Notes: generated by a model from the sequence alone, not told the origin. A DNA stretch of 64,000 nucleotides from Bacteroidota bacterium (GCA_005799025.1 SYHX01000055.1:21641-85640); one strand, 5' to 3'. Positions 40,396 through 46,299 are shown, counted from the stretch's first letter. Translations and numbers: made by a program.

Positions 40396-40955
40396 TGTTA
40401 ATCAAATCCCTTCTTGTCGCTAGCCTCGGCGTAACCCTGGCCTGCGTTTCACCTGACAACCCACAGCAAAACGCCTTATCCGATGCGCGTTTTCACGAGC
40501 TAACTTTTTTGGACATCCAGGGCAAATCCCGCAGTATGTCGGAGTTCAAGGGGCGCTATATCCTGGTGGTCAATACAGCCTCAGAATGCGGCTATACCCC
40601 GCAATACAAGGACCTACAAGCGCTGCACCAACAATTTGGCTCCAAAATCACGATCATCGGCTTTCCTTGTAACGATTTTGGGGGGCAAGAACCCGGGGAC
40701 GAAAATAGCATAGCGGGCTTTTGCGCCAAGAATTACGGTGTTGAATTCCTGATGGCCTCCAAAGTCCAAATCAAGGGCGAAAACAGGCACCCCGTTTACA
40801 ATTGGTTGATGAGCAAATCCCTGAACGGACTTTCTGATGCAGATGTTCGCTGGAATTTCACTAAATTTTTGATCAGTGGTGAGGGTCAATGGATGTCATC
40901 GTTCCCGTCTTCCGTCTCCCCGCTAGACCCCCAAATCACCAAACAGCTCCGCTAA
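40395..40955 (+). CDS. Glutathione peroxidase (Cys-type) lipoprotein
   Basis: Lipobox (VTLAC) followed by the GPx motifs LVVNTASECGYT (Cys rather than Sec) and FPCNDFGGQEPG, plus a WNFTKFL-type motif. Its start overlaps the menB stop (TAATG). Confidence 0.9.
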   Translation: MLIKSLLVASLGVTLACVSPDNPQQNALSDARFHELTFLDIQGKSRSMSEFKGRYILVVNTASECGYTPQYKDLQALHQQFGSKITIIGFPCNDFGGQEPGDENSIAGFCAKNYGVEFLMASKVQIKGENRHPVYNWLMSKSLNGLSDADVRWNFTKFLISGEGQWMSSFPSSVSPLDPQITKQLR

Positions 40956-41012
40956 AGGGATAAGCGTTTAAGACCGACTGCGGGCCAAGGAGTCTGCTTG
41001 TTTGCAGGGGCA

Positions 41013-41375
41013 ATGAGAACCCTGCTTTTACATTACACTGCGCTTGCCACAGCGCTATCGACAGCCCAAGTCTGGGGCCAGACCACAATCCATACACCGC
41101 AAGGCGCTCTTGGGGTATCAGCTCAGGTACGATCCCTGCGCCAATTCTATTGGATTCGCGAATTGCCACCCCATGACGAAACCCCTGGTAACGGAAGAAT
41201 GGGCTACTTCGGCAGCGAAACACCCATTACTCTTCTTTGGAGAAAAGGAAATGAGGCGATTTTAAGGGCCCAATGCCTTCATCCCAATGCATGGTTTAGC
41301 GAACCGGCAGAAAGCCCTATAGATTCATTGCTGAAGAAACGTGTTCATTCCACGATTCAATTGGAAATCGAATGA
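41013..41375 (+). CDS. Hypothetical small secreted protein (first gene of putative pilus-like locus)
   Basis: About 120 aa with a signal-like N-terminus MRTLLLHYTALATALSTAQVWGQ. Its stop overlaps the next ORF's ATG (ATGA). No recognisable domain was found. Confidence 0.35.
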   Translation: MRTLLLHYTALATALSTAQVWGQTTIHTPQGALGVSAQVRSLRQFYWIRELPPHDETPGNGRMGYFGSETPITLLWRKGNEAILRAQCLHPNAWFSEPAESPIDSLLKKRVHSTIQLEIE

Positions 41376-41926
41376 GGGTTTGGGTTTTCTTGCTTATTAT
41401 GTTATGGCATTGGACGGGGGGGGATAATTTCGCCCTCGCCCAAAGAGGGACCGTGCGAGCGCGTATCATGAACGGTTATGCAGGATTGATTTTTGATCAG
41501 GTTGGAACTCCCATTGTCAGCGGAAATCAACAAAGCTACAGCATCGCAATTCATGATTCAAGGACCCTGGTACTTGAAATCGCAGCCCCGGCCAGGACGC
41601 CTTTAATGATTCAAATTCAGCCTGTTACCGAGGTCTGGAACTATTCGGCTTTACCACCCACTTCCATTCCTTTTGTTTGGGAAGCGGCCTTCTGCAACGA
41701 AGGCATTAACGATGAAAGGATGGCAAGGCGTCAAGCTATTCCATTAAATACCAATCAAAATATTTTTCAATTTGAAATGGGTGATTACCAGAACATTCCA
41801 GGTAATCCTGAACCCGTTGAAAACCAGATCAAAGCCTTTTTATATATGTGTGGTCGCTTAGGCCCAGTAGGCCAGGTTACCCCTGGTTATTTCGCCAATT
41901 CCATGAATATCGAGGTTTGGTATTGA
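41372..41926 (+). CDS. Hypothetical secreted protein (candidate minor pilin-like subunit)
   Basis: Clear signal peptide MRVWVFLLIMLWHWTGGDNFALAQ, a beta-rich composition, and the aromatic C-terminus ...NIEVWY. Confidence 0.4.
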   Translation: MRVWVFLLIMLWHWTGGDNFALAQRGTVRARIMNGYAGLIFDQVGTPIVSGNQQSYSIAIHDSRTLVLEIAAPARTPLMIQIQPVTEVWNYSALPPTSIPFVWEAAFCNEGINDERMARRQAIPLNTNQNIFQFEMGDYQNIPGNPEPVENQIKAFLYMCGRLGPVGQVTPGYFANSMNIEVWY

Positions 41927-42015
41927 ACCGCGCCTTAAGCACTCGATATTCATAACACTTTATTAATTGCCCAACCAATCACCTATTTTTTTAACACTTA
42001 ACCCCCCATCCACCC

Positions 42016-42603
42016 ATGAAAAAGACCCTAACAACCAAAAACCTCATGAGCATCAGCCTTGTTGTATCAATGCTTATGGCCCATAGAATGTATGCTCAGA
42101 ACACAGGCGTCATCAACACCAACCTCAATGTTGGTGCAACCGTCCTAGCTCAACTCAAATTAACCAACAATGCGGATGTTCAATTTGGCAATCTATCTGC
42201 GACAACTCCCGGTCATGTTTTCCTATCGCCCACAGGAAGCGGCCACACCAATACCGGGGTCAGCACCTCGGTTGGCAAATTCACGGTGGAAGGATCTACC
42301 ACCGGCTCAGTCAAAGTCACATGGCCTGCCAACATTTCTCTCAACTCCTCGGTAGGAGGCAATACGTTGGTTTACAATTTACAGGTCAACGGAAATGGAA
42401 GCGACCTGGCCTCTGGATCCACCATCCTTGGAACCGGAGGCCTTGGGGTAGCCTCCACGGCAGATATTACCCTTGTGGCCGGCAAATACTACCTCTATGT
42501 AGGGGGAAAAATCGGAGGCAACGCCGGCAGCCCCGCCAATCTCAATGCCCAAGGCATAGGGGTTTATTCCGGTATCGCCAATTTCAGAGCAGAGTACAAT
42601 TGA
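42016..42603 (+). CDS. DUF4402 / spore-coat-protein-U (SCPU)-like secreted protein (candidate major pilin of archaic chaperone-usher system)
   Basis: Signal peptide ...AHRMYAQ. The mature region is low-complexity and rich in G/T/S/N/V with alternating beta pattern (...DVQFGNLSATTPG..., ...LGTGGLGVASTADITLVAGKYYLYVGGKIG...) and ends GIGVYSGIANFRAEYN. This matches my recollection of DUF4402/SCPU family architecture. Confidence 0.5.
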   Translation: MKKTLTTKNLMSISLVVSMLMAHRMYAQNTGVINTNLNVGATVLAQLKLTNNADVQFGNLSATTPGHVFLSPTGSGHTNTGVSTSVGKFTVEGSTTGSVKVTWPANISLNSSVGGNTLVYNLQVNGNGSDLASGSTILGTGGLGVASTADITLVAGKYYLYVGGKIGGNAGSPANLNAQGIGVYSGIANFRAEYN

Positions 42604-42615
42604 TCCTTTCACCAC

Positions 42616-42650
42616 CCCCCTCCTCGGTTGGGTGGAGGGGGATTTATTTA
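42616..42650 (+). terminator. Rho-independent terminator / attenuator hairpin after the DUF4402-like gene
   Basis: An 8-bp all-G/C stem cccccTCC / GGAggggg (42616-42623 paired with 42634-42641) encloses a 10-nt loop (tcggttgggt) and is immediately followed by the T-rich tract atttatttaaat. Confidence 0.5.
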
Positions 42651-42683
42651 AATAAAAAAACTATATATCAAAATACCATCATA

Positions 42684-43550
42684 ATGAACAAAATTATTTT
42701 AGTCATGAGTCTTTATACTGTATCGAATTGGTGCAAAGCGCAGGTGAGTATTGCTCCTACGGGTATCTTGCTGGACCATCAAGGTCAAGGTACCGTCTAT
42801 ATTGGAAACACGGGCAATCAAATCCAGGAAGTTCGTATTCAATTTCTATTCGGGTATCCTGTGCAAGATTCCTTGGGTGAAATTCAAATGATCTATGGCG
42901 ATACGATTCGAGAAAAATCCCATGGACTAGGAAATTCTATCAAAGCCTACCCCTCAGCTTTTACGTTACAACCTCAATCGCAACAAATGGTGAGGCTTCT
43001 TTTGAAGGAACGTCACTTCCGTGAAGAAGGTCTTTACTTCAGCCGAATCAAAATTACCTCTCAAGCAGCAGTGGGGGAGGCTGGAACCATCGACACTGCG
43101 ATGGTAGGCACGAAAGTTGCCTTTCGCTTTGAACAATTCCTGCCTGTGTTCTTCCAAGTTGGCCAACCTGAACCCGATCTTCAGGTATCCCCTCAATCCT
43201 TGCAATCGGATTACCGACACGGAGCTCTACGCTTTGATTATCAATGCGCAAGCAATTCTCCATATTTGGGACAACTGCGTTACCGACTCGTTTCAGCATT
43301 AGCCAATTCATCTACAAGCAACGTTCCTGAACCCTTGGCTAATCAAGAAAAAGTCACAGCATGGAAGGAAATGGAAATTGCATTGTATTTCAACGGTAAT
43401 CGCCGTTGCCTTTTGGCGTGGCCCAACACCCTAGAATCAGGGAAGCACTGTCTTGAACTTGAATTCCATCGAGGGCGCAGTGATTTTCCAGCGCTTGGTG
43501 CTGGAAAGGTTCCTAATTATCGGGGTAAAGTTCACTTTGAATTGCCATGA
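42684..43550 (+). CDS. PapD-like periplasmic pilus chaperone (putative)
   Basis: Signal peptide MNKIILVMSLYTVSNWCKAQ. The mature N-terminus VSIAPTGILLDHQGQGTVYIGNTGNQIQEVRIQF parallels the first-strand region of PapD/FimC/CsuC chaperones (V-S-[LI]-x-[RP]-T-[RG]-[VI]-[IL]...T[LV]x[IV]xNxG). At about 288 aa it is consistent with two Ig-like domains. The first 120 aa of track ORF 42321-43550 are an out-of-frame overlap artefact. Confidence 0.5.
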   Translation: MNKIILVMSLYTVSNWCKAQVSIAPTGILLDHQGQGTVYIGNTGNQIQEVRIQFLFGYPVQDSLGEIQMIYGDTIREKSHGLGNSIKAYPSAFTLQPQSQQMVRLLLKERHFREEGLYFSRIKITSQAAVGEAGTIDTAMVGTKVAFRFEQFLPVFFQVGQPEPDLQVSPQSLQSDYRHGALRFDYQCASNSPYLGQLRYRLVSALANSSTSNVPEPLANQEKVTAWKEMEIALYFNGNRRCLLAWPNTLESGKHCLELEFHRGRSDFPALGAGKVPNYRGKVHFELP

Positions 43551-43560
43551 AACGGAAACG

Positions 43561-46299
43561 ATGTGCAGTACAGAATGTCTTACCCTATGTTATTTTTTAT
43601 GTTCCACTCCCTACGATTCGTTGTCCAATTCCATAAGCCCTCGAGATAGCGTAGAATATCAAGTCTTGGCAAGCTACTCCGGTTACCCTGCAGGTTGGTT
43701 GACCCTCCTCAAAACAGACCAAAGATATTGGTTTCCCCTGAATCTTTGGCTTGAGCAGAGTGGATTTGCGTATTTTCATCCGCTACATAACCAATCCTTT
43801 CACCGATTGCGCCTGCGGAACCCTGTTGATCACAGGATTGGGCAATTCCAAATTGGGGGATACTCTCCCCTGCAATCCAAACCTTGGAAAATATACCATA
43901 GATTCCAGAATATATCTATGAAAAGCAACCCATTGAAGGAATATTTCTTTGATCACCGTCAAACCATATGGGTGAGCAACCATTGGATAGCGTTGCAGTA
44001 CGGCATGGCCACCAAATTCAATGAACCCGCCTTGGAGCTTGATTTTTCGGGGAAGGTCGAGGCGCCCGTAAAGGAATGGAACGATTACCATGCTCGATGG
44101 CTCAAGATAAATGCCATAAAATCTCCGACCCTATTAAAGGATTCGATGGATATTCATCGACCAAAAACAGAAAGTAAATCGATAGAGATTTCTACTTGGT
44201 CTGGACGGTATGAAATCCATTTCCAATCAGGGAAGTTCAACTCCAATATTCAATGGGATGCAGTGGGGCATCTAGGCAAGATTGGTTTTAGGGCCTTTGG
44301 AACTGCCAATGCCATCTTAGAAAGATCGACCAACATTCCAAATTATGAACCAAGAAATGCCCTCACTACAAGGAATACAAAAATAGAATGGCCCAGCCTT
44401 GAACTTGAATGGGCATGGGGATCGCAACAACAAATTAACCTTATTATTTCACCTGCTTCAGTGTCAAGTTTCTGGAAAATAACAGGAGGAAATACGCTTA
44501 TGAGTAGAACGATTGGCTTTGAAGCTCCAAAAGGGATTCATACCCGGCGATGGAAACCTCCCACAGCAATGAGTGAATGGTCTTTCAACCATGGTCCTTT
44601 CATGAATCACCCGCATTTTCCAATGACCACCTCACCCAACGCGAGTAAAGATCGTCTTGATGAAACCAAGGATCTTGTTCCTGTTGCTCTACTCCCCGGA
44701 AGCAACCAAATTGATTATCGGTACAAGAATGCATGGGGAGGAATCTCAAATCGCAGCTTGTTGTGGAATATTCCCGGTTTGATGATACCAGAAGGCCGCT
44801 GGAATTATCGCTATGAATTTTCTGCACCTCTACGGATAAGTGGTATCGTTGGCTACGGCTTAAGGCCTTCTTTAAGTCTTCAATCGGAAGCCATTGTTCA
44901 GCCGGCCAAGGATACAGGCAGAAACCTAGAATGGGATGTCAAAGGCTCCGCCATCTGGACGGCAGGACGAATATTGTATGGACAAAGCCAATATACTGTA
45001 GGCCACGACAATCAAAAATGGGAACAACGTCTTCATTTCTATTTTAGTCAAAGCCTGCAAAGCTCACTCCATTACCAATCATACACCTACTCATTTGATC
45101 CCAAACCAATTGGCGAGTTCTTGAATCTATCAGGACTTTGGATACTCCCAAAAGGTTACGGTCTCAAAATGCTACGTCTTGAATATCCTCTCATGAAGCT
45201 AATTCGGCCCCAACTTCGTCACGAGTTATACCAAGCTATCCTACAATTCGAGGGATGGGGACAGCAATGGCTTTGGCAAATTCCTGAGCACCGTTTATCA
45301 TGGCAAGGAAGAATCCAGCTCAAAGCACCCTCCCTTACCCTGGTATATCAGGCTATCGCTCACCAAGAGGGTTGGCAAGCGTTCGTACAAGGCCACCTGC
45401 GAGGGGGCCACCACTTGGGCGTTTCGTACTCTTTGAACAGGCAGAATACTTCCAACAGGCTCCCAACGACGCAACCAAAGGCAGGGAATTGGGCCTTGGA
45501 ATGGAAGTGGGTGGGGCTTCAAAGCAGCCGATCAGTGCGCGCGCTCCTCAACCGCGAGTCTTCACGATTGGAATACCATGGGCAATTCACCTTATCTCGC
45601 AATAATAACACACTGCCTATCAGCGCGACTAACGGATTAGCGTTGATTCTTCTGGATTTCTACGGAGACCAAAACGCCAATGGAACCAAGGACCCTGATG
45701 AAAATACACTTGATGCATATGGTGCTTTTGATTTGCCCGCGGGAATACCTTACCAATTGCTGGTCAATGGTTCAGCGCTGCTCGGTCCTTTCCCAAATTA
45801 TAACCATGTACGCATTCGGCTCACCCCCCATCATATGCGCAGCCCCGGATGGATTAGCGATCATCTTACAATGGAACTTCATTCCATTCCAAACTCTACC
45901 ATCAAATACCAAATTGCCTTGTTACGAGGTCGGCAAATTTTCGGTACACTCACTTTGGGCAAAATCCCTGCATCCACCATGTCTAATTCCTTGTCAACTA
46001 ACCCCGGAGGAATCCGAATTTACGTCCAACGTTGGGATGAAGGGCCATTATTGGAGTCTTGCCTAAGCGACAGCACGTCTAGCCCCGTATCCCATTCCTG
46101 CAAGCAAACCCTAACCCTTAGCGATGGGTATTTTGAATTCAATGACCTTAGGCCCGGACTCTACAAGGTTTGGGTGGATTGTTCTACCCTTCGCCGATTG
46201 GGATATTCAGGCCATTGTTCTCCGCAAATTCTAGATCTACACCAAGAAGAATCCGTTGAGGTCAATTTTAATTCACCACTAACCTTGGATATTCCCTAA
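43561..46299 (+). CDS. Large beta-rich outer-membrane usher-like protein (putative pilus usher)
   Basis: About 912 aa, located immediately after the chaperone, which is usher-like in size and position. It is aromatic-rich with alternating beta-strand patterns throughout, and its C-terminus has a CarboxypepD_reg / Ig-like beta-sandwich (GYFEFNDLRPGLYKVWVD). The start is uncertain: the ATG at 43561 has a weak signal peptide, and the reading frame stays open upstream to 43453, overlapping the chaperone. Confidence 0.4.
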   Translation: MCSTECLTLCYFLCSTPYDSLSNSISPRDSVEYQVLASYSGYPAGWLTLLKTDQRYWFPLNLWLEQSGFAYFHPLHNQSFHRLRLRNPVDHRIGQFQIGGYSPLQSKPWKIYHRFQNISMKSNPLKEYFFDHRQTIWVSNHWIALQYGMATKFNEPALELDFSGKVEAPVKEWNDYHARWLKINAIKSPTLLKDSMDIHRPKTESKSIEISTWSGRYEIHFQSGKFNSNIQWDAVGHLGKIGFRAFGTANAILERSTNIPNYEPRNALTTRNTKIEWPSLELEWAWGSQQQINLIISPASVSSFWKITGGNTLMSRTIGFEAPKGIHTRRWKPPTAMSEWSFNHGPFMNHPHFPMTTSPNASKDRLDETKDLVPVALLPGSNQIDYRYKNAWGGISNRSLLWNIPGLMIPEGRWNYRYEFSAPLRISGIVGYGLRPSLSLQSEAIVQPAKDTGRNLEWDVKGSAIWTAGRILYGQSQYTVGHDNQKWEQRLHFYFSQSLQSSLHYQSYTYSFDPKPIGEFLNLSGLWILPKGYGLKMLRLEYPLMKLIRPQLRHELYQAILQFEGWGQQWLWQIPEHRLSWQGRIQLKAPSLTLVYQAIAHQEGWQAFVQGHLRGGHHLGVSYSLNRQNTSNRLPTTQPKAGNWALEWKWVGLQSSRSVRALLNRESSRLEYHGQFTLSRNNNTLPISATNGLALILLDFYGDQNANGTKDPDENTLDAYGAFDLPAGIPYQLLVNGSALLGPFPNYNHVRIRLTPHHMRSPGWISDHLTMELHSIPNSTIKYQIALLRGRQIFGTLTLGKIPASTMSNSLSTNPGGIRIYVQRWDEGPLLESCLSDSTSSPVSHSCKQTLTLSDGYFEFNDLRPGLYKVWVDCSTLRRLGYSGHCSPQILDLHQEESVEVNFNSPLTLDIP

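Follow-up and report, generated by a model that had tools for sequence, protein, structure and literature searches.

Five co-directional genes, here called A to E, lie on the + strand at positions 41013-46299 of a 64,000-nucleotide stretch of DNA from a Bacteroidota bacterium (GCA_005799025.1, SYHX01000055.1:21641-85640), referred to below in its full length as the window. A first-pass annotation had read them as a chaperone-usher (CU) pilus locus, in the order small subunits, PapD-like chaperone, usher. The open reading frames (ORFs) were found where it had placed them, and the peptide strings it had quoted were correct:

41013-41375, + strand: gene A, 120 amino acids
41372-41926, + strand: gene B, 184 amino acids, candidate minor subunit
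42016-42603, + strand: gene C, 195 amino acids, DUF4402 family, putative major subunit
42684-43550, + strand: gene D, 288 amino acids, predicted PapD-like chaperone
43561-46299, + strand: gene E, 912 amino acids, usher homologue through an intermediate family

The stop of A and the start of B overlap in ATGA at 41372-41375, and the gaps that follow measure 90 bp (B-C), 81 bp (C-D) and 10 bp (D-E). An alternative start of E, a TTG at 43537 that overlaps the end of D, is used in a 920-residue database version. The core of the annotation's call for this Bacteroidota locus, one or more subunits followed by a PapD-like chaperone and an usher, has stood, through a Pfam match for C, through fold and profile comparisons for D, and through transitive profile comparisons together with a Foldseek search for E.

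Subunit, chaperone and usher homologues

Signal peptides had been assigned to all five products. Hydrophobic leaders of the AQ type are indeed present on A to D, ending in ...LAQ/R in B, ...YAQ/N in C and ...KAQ/V in D, with a similar ...STAQVWGQ in A, but the N-terminus of E (MCSTECLTLCYFLCSTPYDS) contains four Cys, has no basic n-region and is atypical as a Sec leader. Within residues 1-15 of E (43561-43605) a Cys recurs every four residues (C2, C6, C10 and C14) and basic residues number zero. This N-terminus has the canonical form of neither a Sec leader nor a lipobox; relatives of E retain a short hydrophobic, Cys-rich stretch there.

Gene C belongs to the DUF4402 family. In the Pfam scan, residues 47-194 of its product match PF14352 at 30.7 bits (cut-off 25.2) over the entire profile (1-129 of 129). 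The domain is preceded by 18 mature residues (NTGVINTNLNVGATVLAQ) in which hydrophobic and polar residues alternate and which, judged by this pattern, form a candidate donor-strand segment; the C-terminus is an amphipathic strand, IANFRAEYN. The protein is rich in Gly, Thr, Ser and Asn and contains no Cys at all, and the lack of a lipobox Cys sets it apart from the lipoprotein pilins of type V. The subunits had been described as DUF4402/SCPU-like. The DUF4402 half of this description applies to C, but B has a weak C-terminal likeness only, A has none, and SCPU (PF05229) was not matched by A, B or C at an E-value <=1 in the Pfam scan. A small DUF4402 profile aligns with plasmid-borne SCPU pilins over its N-terminal 32 columns only (hhalign probability 80.6%, E-value 1.3e-5), and the Cys pair C42/C71, invariant in the reference SCPU pilins (alignment A13), is absent from C. 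No sequence relative of C was found in the PDB by phmmer or hmmsearch, nor any match to C on plasmids by tblastn; the Sphingomonas plasmid operon that was inspected is of the SCPU type. C would be the major fibre subunit.

Genes A and B both encode smaller proteins. B has no Pfam match. Its leader ends in ALAQ, the gene is kept in seven related loci (L001-L007, described below), and its C-terminal 32 residues (KAFLYMCGRLGPVGQVTPGYFANSMNIEVWY) weakly resemble the C-terminal motif of the C-family DUF4402 proteins (ylyvGG...G.Y......v.Y; hhalign 29.5%, E-value 5.7e-4). A hidden Markov model (HMM) of B finds, again weakly (E-values 4e-4 to 2e-3), small proteins of distant loci that are encoded 5' of a DUF4402 gene, and some of these proteins are themselves weak DUF4402 matches. 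From these sequence likenesses B is probably, though at low confidence, a divergent minor subunit, and it may be a far-diverged DUF4402-like protein. A has no Pfam or NCBIfam match; hhalign relates its family to neither the B nor the C family, no relationship to DUF4402 was seen, and its HMM matched nothing in the distant loci, relatives outside the lineage going undetected. It is kept at the same position in L001-L007 and, from its sequence, appears to be a secreted protein confined to this lineage. Neither A nor B has conserved Cys residues; an amphipathic strand closes the sequence of each at the very C-terminus, as it does that of C.

The Pfam checks that had been proposed for D and E returned no PapD_N, PapD_C, Usher or PapC match, and profile-profile and fold methods were needed for both. 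In the case of D, the expectation of a chaperone with two immunoglobulin (Ig) domains was borne out by structure prediction. The AlphaFold2 model (predicted local distance difference test, pLDDT, 76; predicted template modelling score, pTM, 0.70) consists of two beta-sandwich domains and matches the fold of known CU chaperones, the values of the comparison, whose columns are unlabelled, being 14.9 and 177 for YadV, 14.4 and 175 for CsuC, 13.8 for both FimC and SafB, 13.3 for EcpB, 13.1 for CupB2, 12.6 for CfaA, 12.1 for PapD and 12.0 for FaeE. The structural alignment extends across both domains, and Foldseek gives a probability of 1.0 for dozens of CU chaperones, Caf1M included. Profile comparison by hhalign leads to the same family: the D family aligns with a profile of eight E. 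coli K-12 chaperones over 170 columns (90.2%, E-value 1.5e-6) and with one of four archaic chaperones from plasmid SCPU operons over 122 columns (83.9%, E-value 7.8e-6), against 0.2% for the reversed-profile control. A single-sequence hhalign comparison of D with FimC was not significant, and the PDB sequence searches yielded no chaperone match, a sub-threshold FaeE (E-value 0.7) being the sole sign of one. The predicted fold and the profile homology together show D to be a PapD-like chaperone of two Ig domains, predicted to reside in the periplasm. Its relatives form about 20 clusters among 5.8 billion proteins, all from metagenomes or metagenome-assembled genomes (MAGs); NCBI labels them 'hypothetical', and the Joint Genome Institute (JGI) labels some of them 'P pilus assembly chaperone PapD'.

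An invariant Pro that kinks strand D1 is a mark of the CU chaperone superfamily (PMC4654587). P90 of D does not vary among 12 D-family sequences, lines up with the Pro common to all eight E. coli chaperones and coincides in the model with a strand break at residues 90-91, in strand D1. R104, Y118 and R121 are also invariant, the last two in the F1-equivalent strand, and FEQFLPVFF (residues 149-157) is a candidate G1 donor strand. Two motifs of D resemble those of archaic chaperones, AQVSIAPT (compare AASLQVAPI) and FLPVFF (compare SIPVF). The positions of the classical carboxylate anchors, Arg8 and Lys112, are taken by G27 and P154, so that D is non-classical. In archaic chaperones the carboxylate is anchored non-classically, by Arg89 of strand F1, and the G1 motif is led by a Tyr (PMC4654587). 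R121 of D lies, in the sequence alignments, two residues past the aligned Arg89 of EcpB, CsuC and the archaic chaperones, and because of this offset it is a candidate for an archaic-type anchor signature and not an established one. D is some 50 residues longer than archaic chaperones, with inserts at 57-80, 129-147 and 208-221.

Gene E is far more divergent. The only signals from curated HMMs are weak ones, to SdrD_B and CarboxypepD_reg, close to the C-terminus, where an Ig/CarboxypepD_reg-like domain had been placed at first pass. E has no match among PDB sequences, and the profiles A1, A5, A6 and A8 match no usher there. A word-indexed search, even with a profile, recovers eight clusters of close relatives only. 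An exhaustive HMMER search with E finds four representatives at an E-value <1e-30 and adds a few same-sized distant proteins alongside a large number of unrelated repeat proteins having the same last domain. Public records name E 'hypothetical protein' throughout. Six proteins from the exhaustive search (P0038 and P0043-P0047) are of the size of E and align co-linearly with it at the C-terminus; with E-like proteins of distant cassettes, described below, they make up A8, a set of ten sequences of which none comes from the window family and which stand for a broader family of 850-1400 residues encoded beside DUF4402 and D-like genes. A6 unites the window family with A8 (16 sequences).

It is through A8 that E is connected with ushers. 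The E family aligns with A8 over 739 columns (hhalign 99.2%, E-value 6.8e-20), and among the ORFs of the window an HMM of A8 matches E alone (9.1e-25). A8 in turn aligns with six classical ushers of E. coli over 595 columns (98.0%, E-value 2.4e-13) and with five archaic ushers over 598 columns (97.7%, E-value 1.3e-12), and A6 aligns with the E. coli ushers over 587 columns (96.7%, E-value 3.9e-10). The alignment of A8 with the E. coli ushers is co-linear through the first barrel strands, the plug and the C-terminal domains, and that with the archaic ushers takes in the N-terminal domain. The controls for A8 were negative (FhuA 0.1%, BamA 0.3%, reversed usher profiles at most 1.9%). Taken transitively, through A8 as the intermediate family, these profile alignments show E to be a homologue of outer-membrane ushers. 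The best alignment of the E family itself with archaic ushers, which is not significant, falls at the expected post-plug strand. The AlphaFold2 model of E is poor (pLDDT 44, pTM 0.26), with residues 168-464 essentially unmodelled. The top 11 PDB matches of this model in Foldseek are all FimD or PapC (E-values 1.3e-9 to 3.4e-4, alignments of 550-1020 columns), followed by unrelated barrels at E-values >1e-2; because the quality of the model is low, this result is supportive and not decisive.

The alignments divide E as follows, all domain boundaries being approximate and alignment-based:

residues ~27-165, 43639-44055, + strand: N-terminal domain (approximate, alignment-based)
residues ~325-402, 44533-44766, + strand: plug-equivalent (approximate, alignment-based)
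residues 402-416, 44764-44808, + strand: motif WNIPGLMIPEGRWNY (WNIPGLMIPEG), counterpart of the usher segment 'vPy...lr.G..rY'
residues ~420-690, + strand: C-terminal half of the barrel (approximate, alignment-based)
residues 700-714, 45658-45702, + strand: motif FYGDQNANGTKDPDE (FYGDQNANGxKDxDE)
residues ~715-905, + strand: two C-terminal beta-sandwich domains (approximate)
residues 853-872, 46117-46176, + strand: last domain, CarboxypepD_reg/SdrD_B-like

The motif between the barrel and the C-terminal domains, F/Y-x-D-x-N-x-N/D-G-x-x-D-x-x-E, occupies the same column in all 16 A6 sequences. Across the usher-like family D703 is invariant and N705 nearly so, and the motif is without counterpart in the FimD alignment; its sequence looks like that of a calcium-binding loop. 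The plug-equivalent (about 280-350 of the A6 and A8 profiles) matches the Ig-like repeat of staphylococcal Bap, PDB 7dm0 (E-values 4.7e-10 for A6, 2.4e-9 for A8). Within the window lineage this region is strongly diverged and carries an insertion.

Conservation of the locus and related cassettes

A scan of GTDB species genomes for the D family gave nine loci. Seven of them (L001-L007) are in freshwater 'Bacteroidetes/Bacteroidia' MAGs, two of these labelled Sphingomonadales. The order menD-menB-gpx-A-B-C-D-E is kept in all seven MAG contigs, and purE and purK follow E in four, that is, wherever the contig extends that far. In the window, the locus is preceded by menD, menB and then the glutathione peroxidase gene gpx (GSHPx, 1.8e-34), and is followed 8 bp past E by purE (AIR carboxylase, 2.9e-64), convergent on the - strand, and then by purK; the gpx and purE flanks reported at first pass are confirmed. 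Amino-acid identity of A to E between the window and the seven MAG loci is 44-89% overall. The values for each gene are given below together with the ratio of non-synonymous to synonymous substitution rates (dN/dS; pairwise, Nei-Gojobori, window against L001-L003):

menB, comparison gene: identity 92-95%, dN/dS 0.05
gene C, the most conserved of the five: identity 83-89%, dN/dS 0.11-0.13
gene D: identity 65-86%, dN/dS 0.10-0.13
gene B: identity 65-76%, dN/dS 0.10-0.22
gene A: identity 52-73%, dN/dS 0.28-0.31
gene E: identity 44-68%, dN/dS 0.22-0.26

With dN/dS at 0.10-0.31, all five genes are under purifying selection, and this, together with the conserved synteny, rules out spurious or chance ORFs. 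Composition analysis of the window revealed no sharp compositional island, and no second copy of the A to E families is found elsewhere in the window. The suggestion that the locus is core rather than mobile holds for this lineage, given the synteny in seven MAGs and the lack of an island. The five genes form a stable chromosomal block that is inherited vertically.

Several observations concern the surroundings of these genes. Two further ORFs appear mechanically, one at 40936-41223 on the - strand, overlapping A, and one at 42321-43550 on the + strand (409 amino acids), extending D in the 5' direction; given the conservation of and selection on A and the 288-residue D, both are probably spurious. 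Two of the related loci, L002 (VHBD01000008.1) and L003 (VHAW01000036.1), come from Lake Tanganyika MAGs labelled 'Sphingomonadales bacterium' and display Bacteroidota-type synteny, their proteins being 81-95% identical to those of the window; the label probably reflects mis-binning or a taxonomic mislabel. In L002 an additional segment of some 2.3 kb (L002:11517-13871) separates the usher gene from purE; it is absent from the window, with its 8-bp gap, and from L005-L007.

The gap between C and D holds one further element:

42616-42641, + strand: GC-rich hairpin CCCCCTCC-N10-GGAGGGGG, directly after C

An A/T-rich stretch (ATTTATTTAAATAAAAAAA) follows it directly on the 3' side. The arms of the hairpin are conserved in five of six related loci (L001, L002, L004, L005 and L007), with diverged flanks, and are partly broken in L003; there are no compensatory changes. 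Its fold energy of -19.8 kcal/mol is no better than that of shuffled sequences (z -0.72), and the terminator scan did not call it. The scan for sigma-70 promoters and terminators, whose model is not fitted to Bacteroidota promoters, gave no more sites than in shuffled sequence. In other pilus operons, attenuators raise the ratio of subunits to machinery. By analogy, the hairpin may be a partial terminator or an mRNA stabiliser that raises subunit-to-machinery stoichiometry, a role that stays speculative because the fold is not thermodynamically exceptional and covariation is absent.

Beyond this lineage, the triad of DUF4402, D-like and E-like genes recurs in Balneolaceae (L008, L009) and in other metagenomic contigs (L011-L014). 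The D-like genes stand between a DUF4402 gene and an E-like gene of 870-1423 codons, and their products are matched by the D HMM at E-values of 1e-54 to 1e-109; they reach PapD_N at sub-threshold level (E-values 0.005-0.025). These distant cassettes share with the window the triad and its order, homologous D-like and E-like proteins, the DxNxNG motif and the last domain of the usher. The window differs in that its usher is the most divergent member, with a barely recognisable plug and no direct usher signal, and in that A and B have no clear counterparts in the distant cassettes. In Balneolaceae the usher-like proteins (L008:2110-6381 and L009:8792-12523) are 1243-1423 residues long and carry one to three C-terminal SPOR domains (E-values 4e-22 and 1.5e-9). 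Because SPOR domains bind peptidoglycan, the C-terminus of these proteins is placed in the periplasm, as in ushers. On the Balneolaceae ushers they would tether the usher to the cell wall, and we know of no earlier description of a SPOR-usher combination. In the more elaborate cassettes of L012-L014, two D-like chaperone paralogues (270 and 291 residues) and four or five DUF4402-like genes all precede the usher (L012:1741-9487). In L012 and L013, whose contigs continue beyond the usher, this gene is followed by genes for a PAS/GAF histidine kinase and for response regulators, which may constitute a dedicated regulatory module.

Proposed mechanism and alternative readings

The best explanation of the locus, at a probability of about 0.8, is a CU fibre-assembly system of a deep, hitherto unclassified branch. 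By analogy with the known CU mechanism, one would then expect donor strands to complement the subunits and to be exchanged, E to serve as the export route and a fibre to form on the cell surface. C, probably B and perhaps A would be exported by Sec and captured in the periplasm by D, whose G1 strand FEQFLPVFF would complete their fold while D holds their C-terminal beta-strand. The chaperone-subunit complexes would be passed to the outer-membrane usher E. Polymerisation would proceed there as the N-terminal extension of each incoming subunit takes the place of the chaperone strand, and with the plug displaced the fibre would leave through the barrel of E. Such a fibre would probably serve adhesion or aggregation, in plankton or biofilms of fresh water.

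Several points weigh against such a system. Neither D nor E has a match in Pfam (PapD_N and PapD_C for D, Usher and PapC for E) or in NCBIfam, and A has no detectable family. Direct hhalign comparisons of the E family with FimD, with the E. coli ushers and with the archaic ushers are not significant, so that the case for usher homology of E depends on a single intermediate family plus a Foldseek search whose input model is of low confidence. The 24-strand barrel with a plug that had been anticipated is not visible in that model (pLDDT 44), such an architecture being suggested by the alignments and the layout of secondary structure only, and E is missing a textbook signal peptide. No tip-adhesin gene is present at the locus. 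The missing G strand of the subunits and the donor strand are assumed from the known CU mechanism, all family members come from MAGs or metagenomes, and the system is known here from its genes alone.

The alternatives differ in how much of the CU reading they retain. The annotation had labelled the locus archaic (sigma/Csu-type), and it is conceivable, if unlikely, that it is a true archaic member of the Csu/CupE type that merely evolves fast. Such a member would account for the archaic motifs of D at its mature start and putative G1 strand, for the lack of the classical Arg8/Lys112 anchors, for the resemblance of the DUF4402 N-terminus to that of SCPU (80.6%, E-value 1.3e-5) and for the order subunits-chaperone-usher, as in Csu. 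Archaic systems are also those known outside Proteobacteria, with reports from Proteobacteria, Cyanobacteria and Deinococcus-Thermus (PMC4654587). When single ushers are aligned with A8, the archaic ones (91.7% and 69.1%) outscore the classical ones (35.8% and 14.6%), which suggests a mild lean of the sequences to the archaic side. The label nevertheless could not be substantiated: A, B and C have no SCPU match in Pfam, the invariant SCPU Cys pair (PMC4654587) is absent and C is Cys-free, no CsuE-like two-domain gene follows the usher, the D family scores no better against archaic than against classical chaperones, R121 stands, in the alignments, two residues away from the position of Arg89 in EcpB and CsuC, and at profile level the usher family is as far from classical ushers (2.4e-13) as from archaic ones (1.3e-12), the value between those two being 6.4e-38. 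Another possibility, which we hold to be rather improbable, keeps the CU-derived machinery and dispenses with the pilus, DUF4402 proteins being secreted or anchored to form an amorphous or capsule-like polymer, as Caf1 does, or a single-layer surface coat. Some CU systems, Caf1 among them, do make non-pilus polymers, and the Caf1 chaperone Caf1M is among the fold matches of D; a tip adhesin is not encoded, and C, Gly/Thr/Ser/Asn-rich and highly conserved, is as bulk surface material would be. Sequence data do not distinguish fibre morphology, however, and the mechanism would still be CU polymerisation, so that this is a variant of the best explanation.

A more radical proposal is that the locus is not a CU system at all, E being an unrelated barrel (TonB-dependent/SusC-like, or a component of T9SS, the type IX secretion machinery, or of type V pili) and D a generic Ig-fold periplasmic protein. 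The missing curated-HMM matches of D and E would fit, as would the prominence of type V pili and T9SS in Bacteroidota, the resemblance of the first domain of D to MSP, ASH and Cep192 'PapD-like' domains outside pili, and the CarboxypepD_reg-like domain of E, which is found also in SusC-like proteins. That domain is, however, C-terminal in E and N-terminal in SusC, and the Pfam scan found no Plug or TonB_dep_Rec match; a SusC/TonB-type transporter was rejected on the wrong domain order and the negative FhuA control. A8 is negative against FhuA and BamA and positive, co-linearly, against ushers, the top 11 Foldseek matches of E are ushers only, and D aligns with CU chaperones over both domains. 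C has no lipobox Cys and no match to a T9SS C-terminal domain. A type V pilus was discarded for want of a lipoprotein pilin and of any Pfam or NCBIfam type V pilin match, with leaders that end in AQ, and T9SS cargo for want of a C-terminal sorting domain in the Pfam and NCBIfam scans. All told, the proposal of a non-CU locus is very improbable.

Within the CU reading, the position of the system among known CU classes can be approached through profile distances. The E-value between classical and archaic ushers is 6.4e-38, and that between the chaperones of these two classes is 1e-11, whereas the A8 usher family matches either usher class at ~1e-12 to 1e-13. Being far from both known classes, it is either a deep branch of its own or an offshoot whose evolution has been extremely fast. 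On balance, the DUF4402/D-like/E-like cassette rather probably represents a previously unclassified, deep-branching CU clade native to Bacteroidota/Balneolales, characterised by Cys-free DUF4402 pilins, the DxNxNGxxDxxE usher motif, a transthyretin/CarboxypepD_reg-like last domain, SPOR domains in some members, and ushers farther from the classical and archaic ones than those are from each other.

Comparison with known systems

To our knowledge, CU pili, a textbook system, have been described almost only in Proteobacteria. The literature search found no paper mentioning DUF4402/PF14352 and none on CU systems native to Bacteroidota. What is already known is the PapD-like label that JGI annotation gives to some D homologues; for the usher, every record reads 'hypothetical'. 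What is new is, most likely, a divergent CU system with DUF4402 subunits in Bacteroidota/Balneolales, parts of which have been missed by standard annotation. If this is true, a function can be assigned to the Pfam family DUF4402, the usher and chaperone families reach well beyond detection by curated HMMs, a deep outgroup becomes available for the evolution of the usher, the chaperone and the donor-strand mechanism, and abundant uncultured freshwater Bacteroidota possess an unrecognised adhesion organelle.

Archaic (sigma) pili, such as Acinetobacter Csu and Pseudomonas CupE, are built from SCPU pilins with a disulphide, whereas the window encodes a DUF4402 protein from which the conserved disulphide is absent. 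The archaic reference operons (L020-L025) all encode a CsuE-like two-domain SCPU adhesin after the usher; in the window there is none, and purE, on the - strand, ends 8 bp past E. Compared with the archaic usher and chaperone, the window pair is invisible to the Pfam Usher and PapD models, and its usher carries the DxNxNGxxDxxE motif and a CarboxypepD_reg-like last domain, unlike those of Csu and CupE. Classical pili (type 1 Fim, P Pap) combine pilins of the Fimbrial family with a chaperone and usher that Pfam recognises, neither of which holds for the window, and their chaperones have the Arg8/Lys112 anchor where D has G27/P154.

Type V pilins (Mfa/FimA) are proteolytically processed lipoproteins that need no usher or PapD-like chaperone. 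Type V pili share with the predicted fibre of the window their phylum, their place on the cell surface and a presumed use of strand exchange. They differ from it in that the window subunit is Cys-free and that a chaperone and an usher are encoded beside it. If the cassette is indeed a deep-branching clade, it would add a third kind of pilus to this phylum, beside type V pili and T9SS adhesins.

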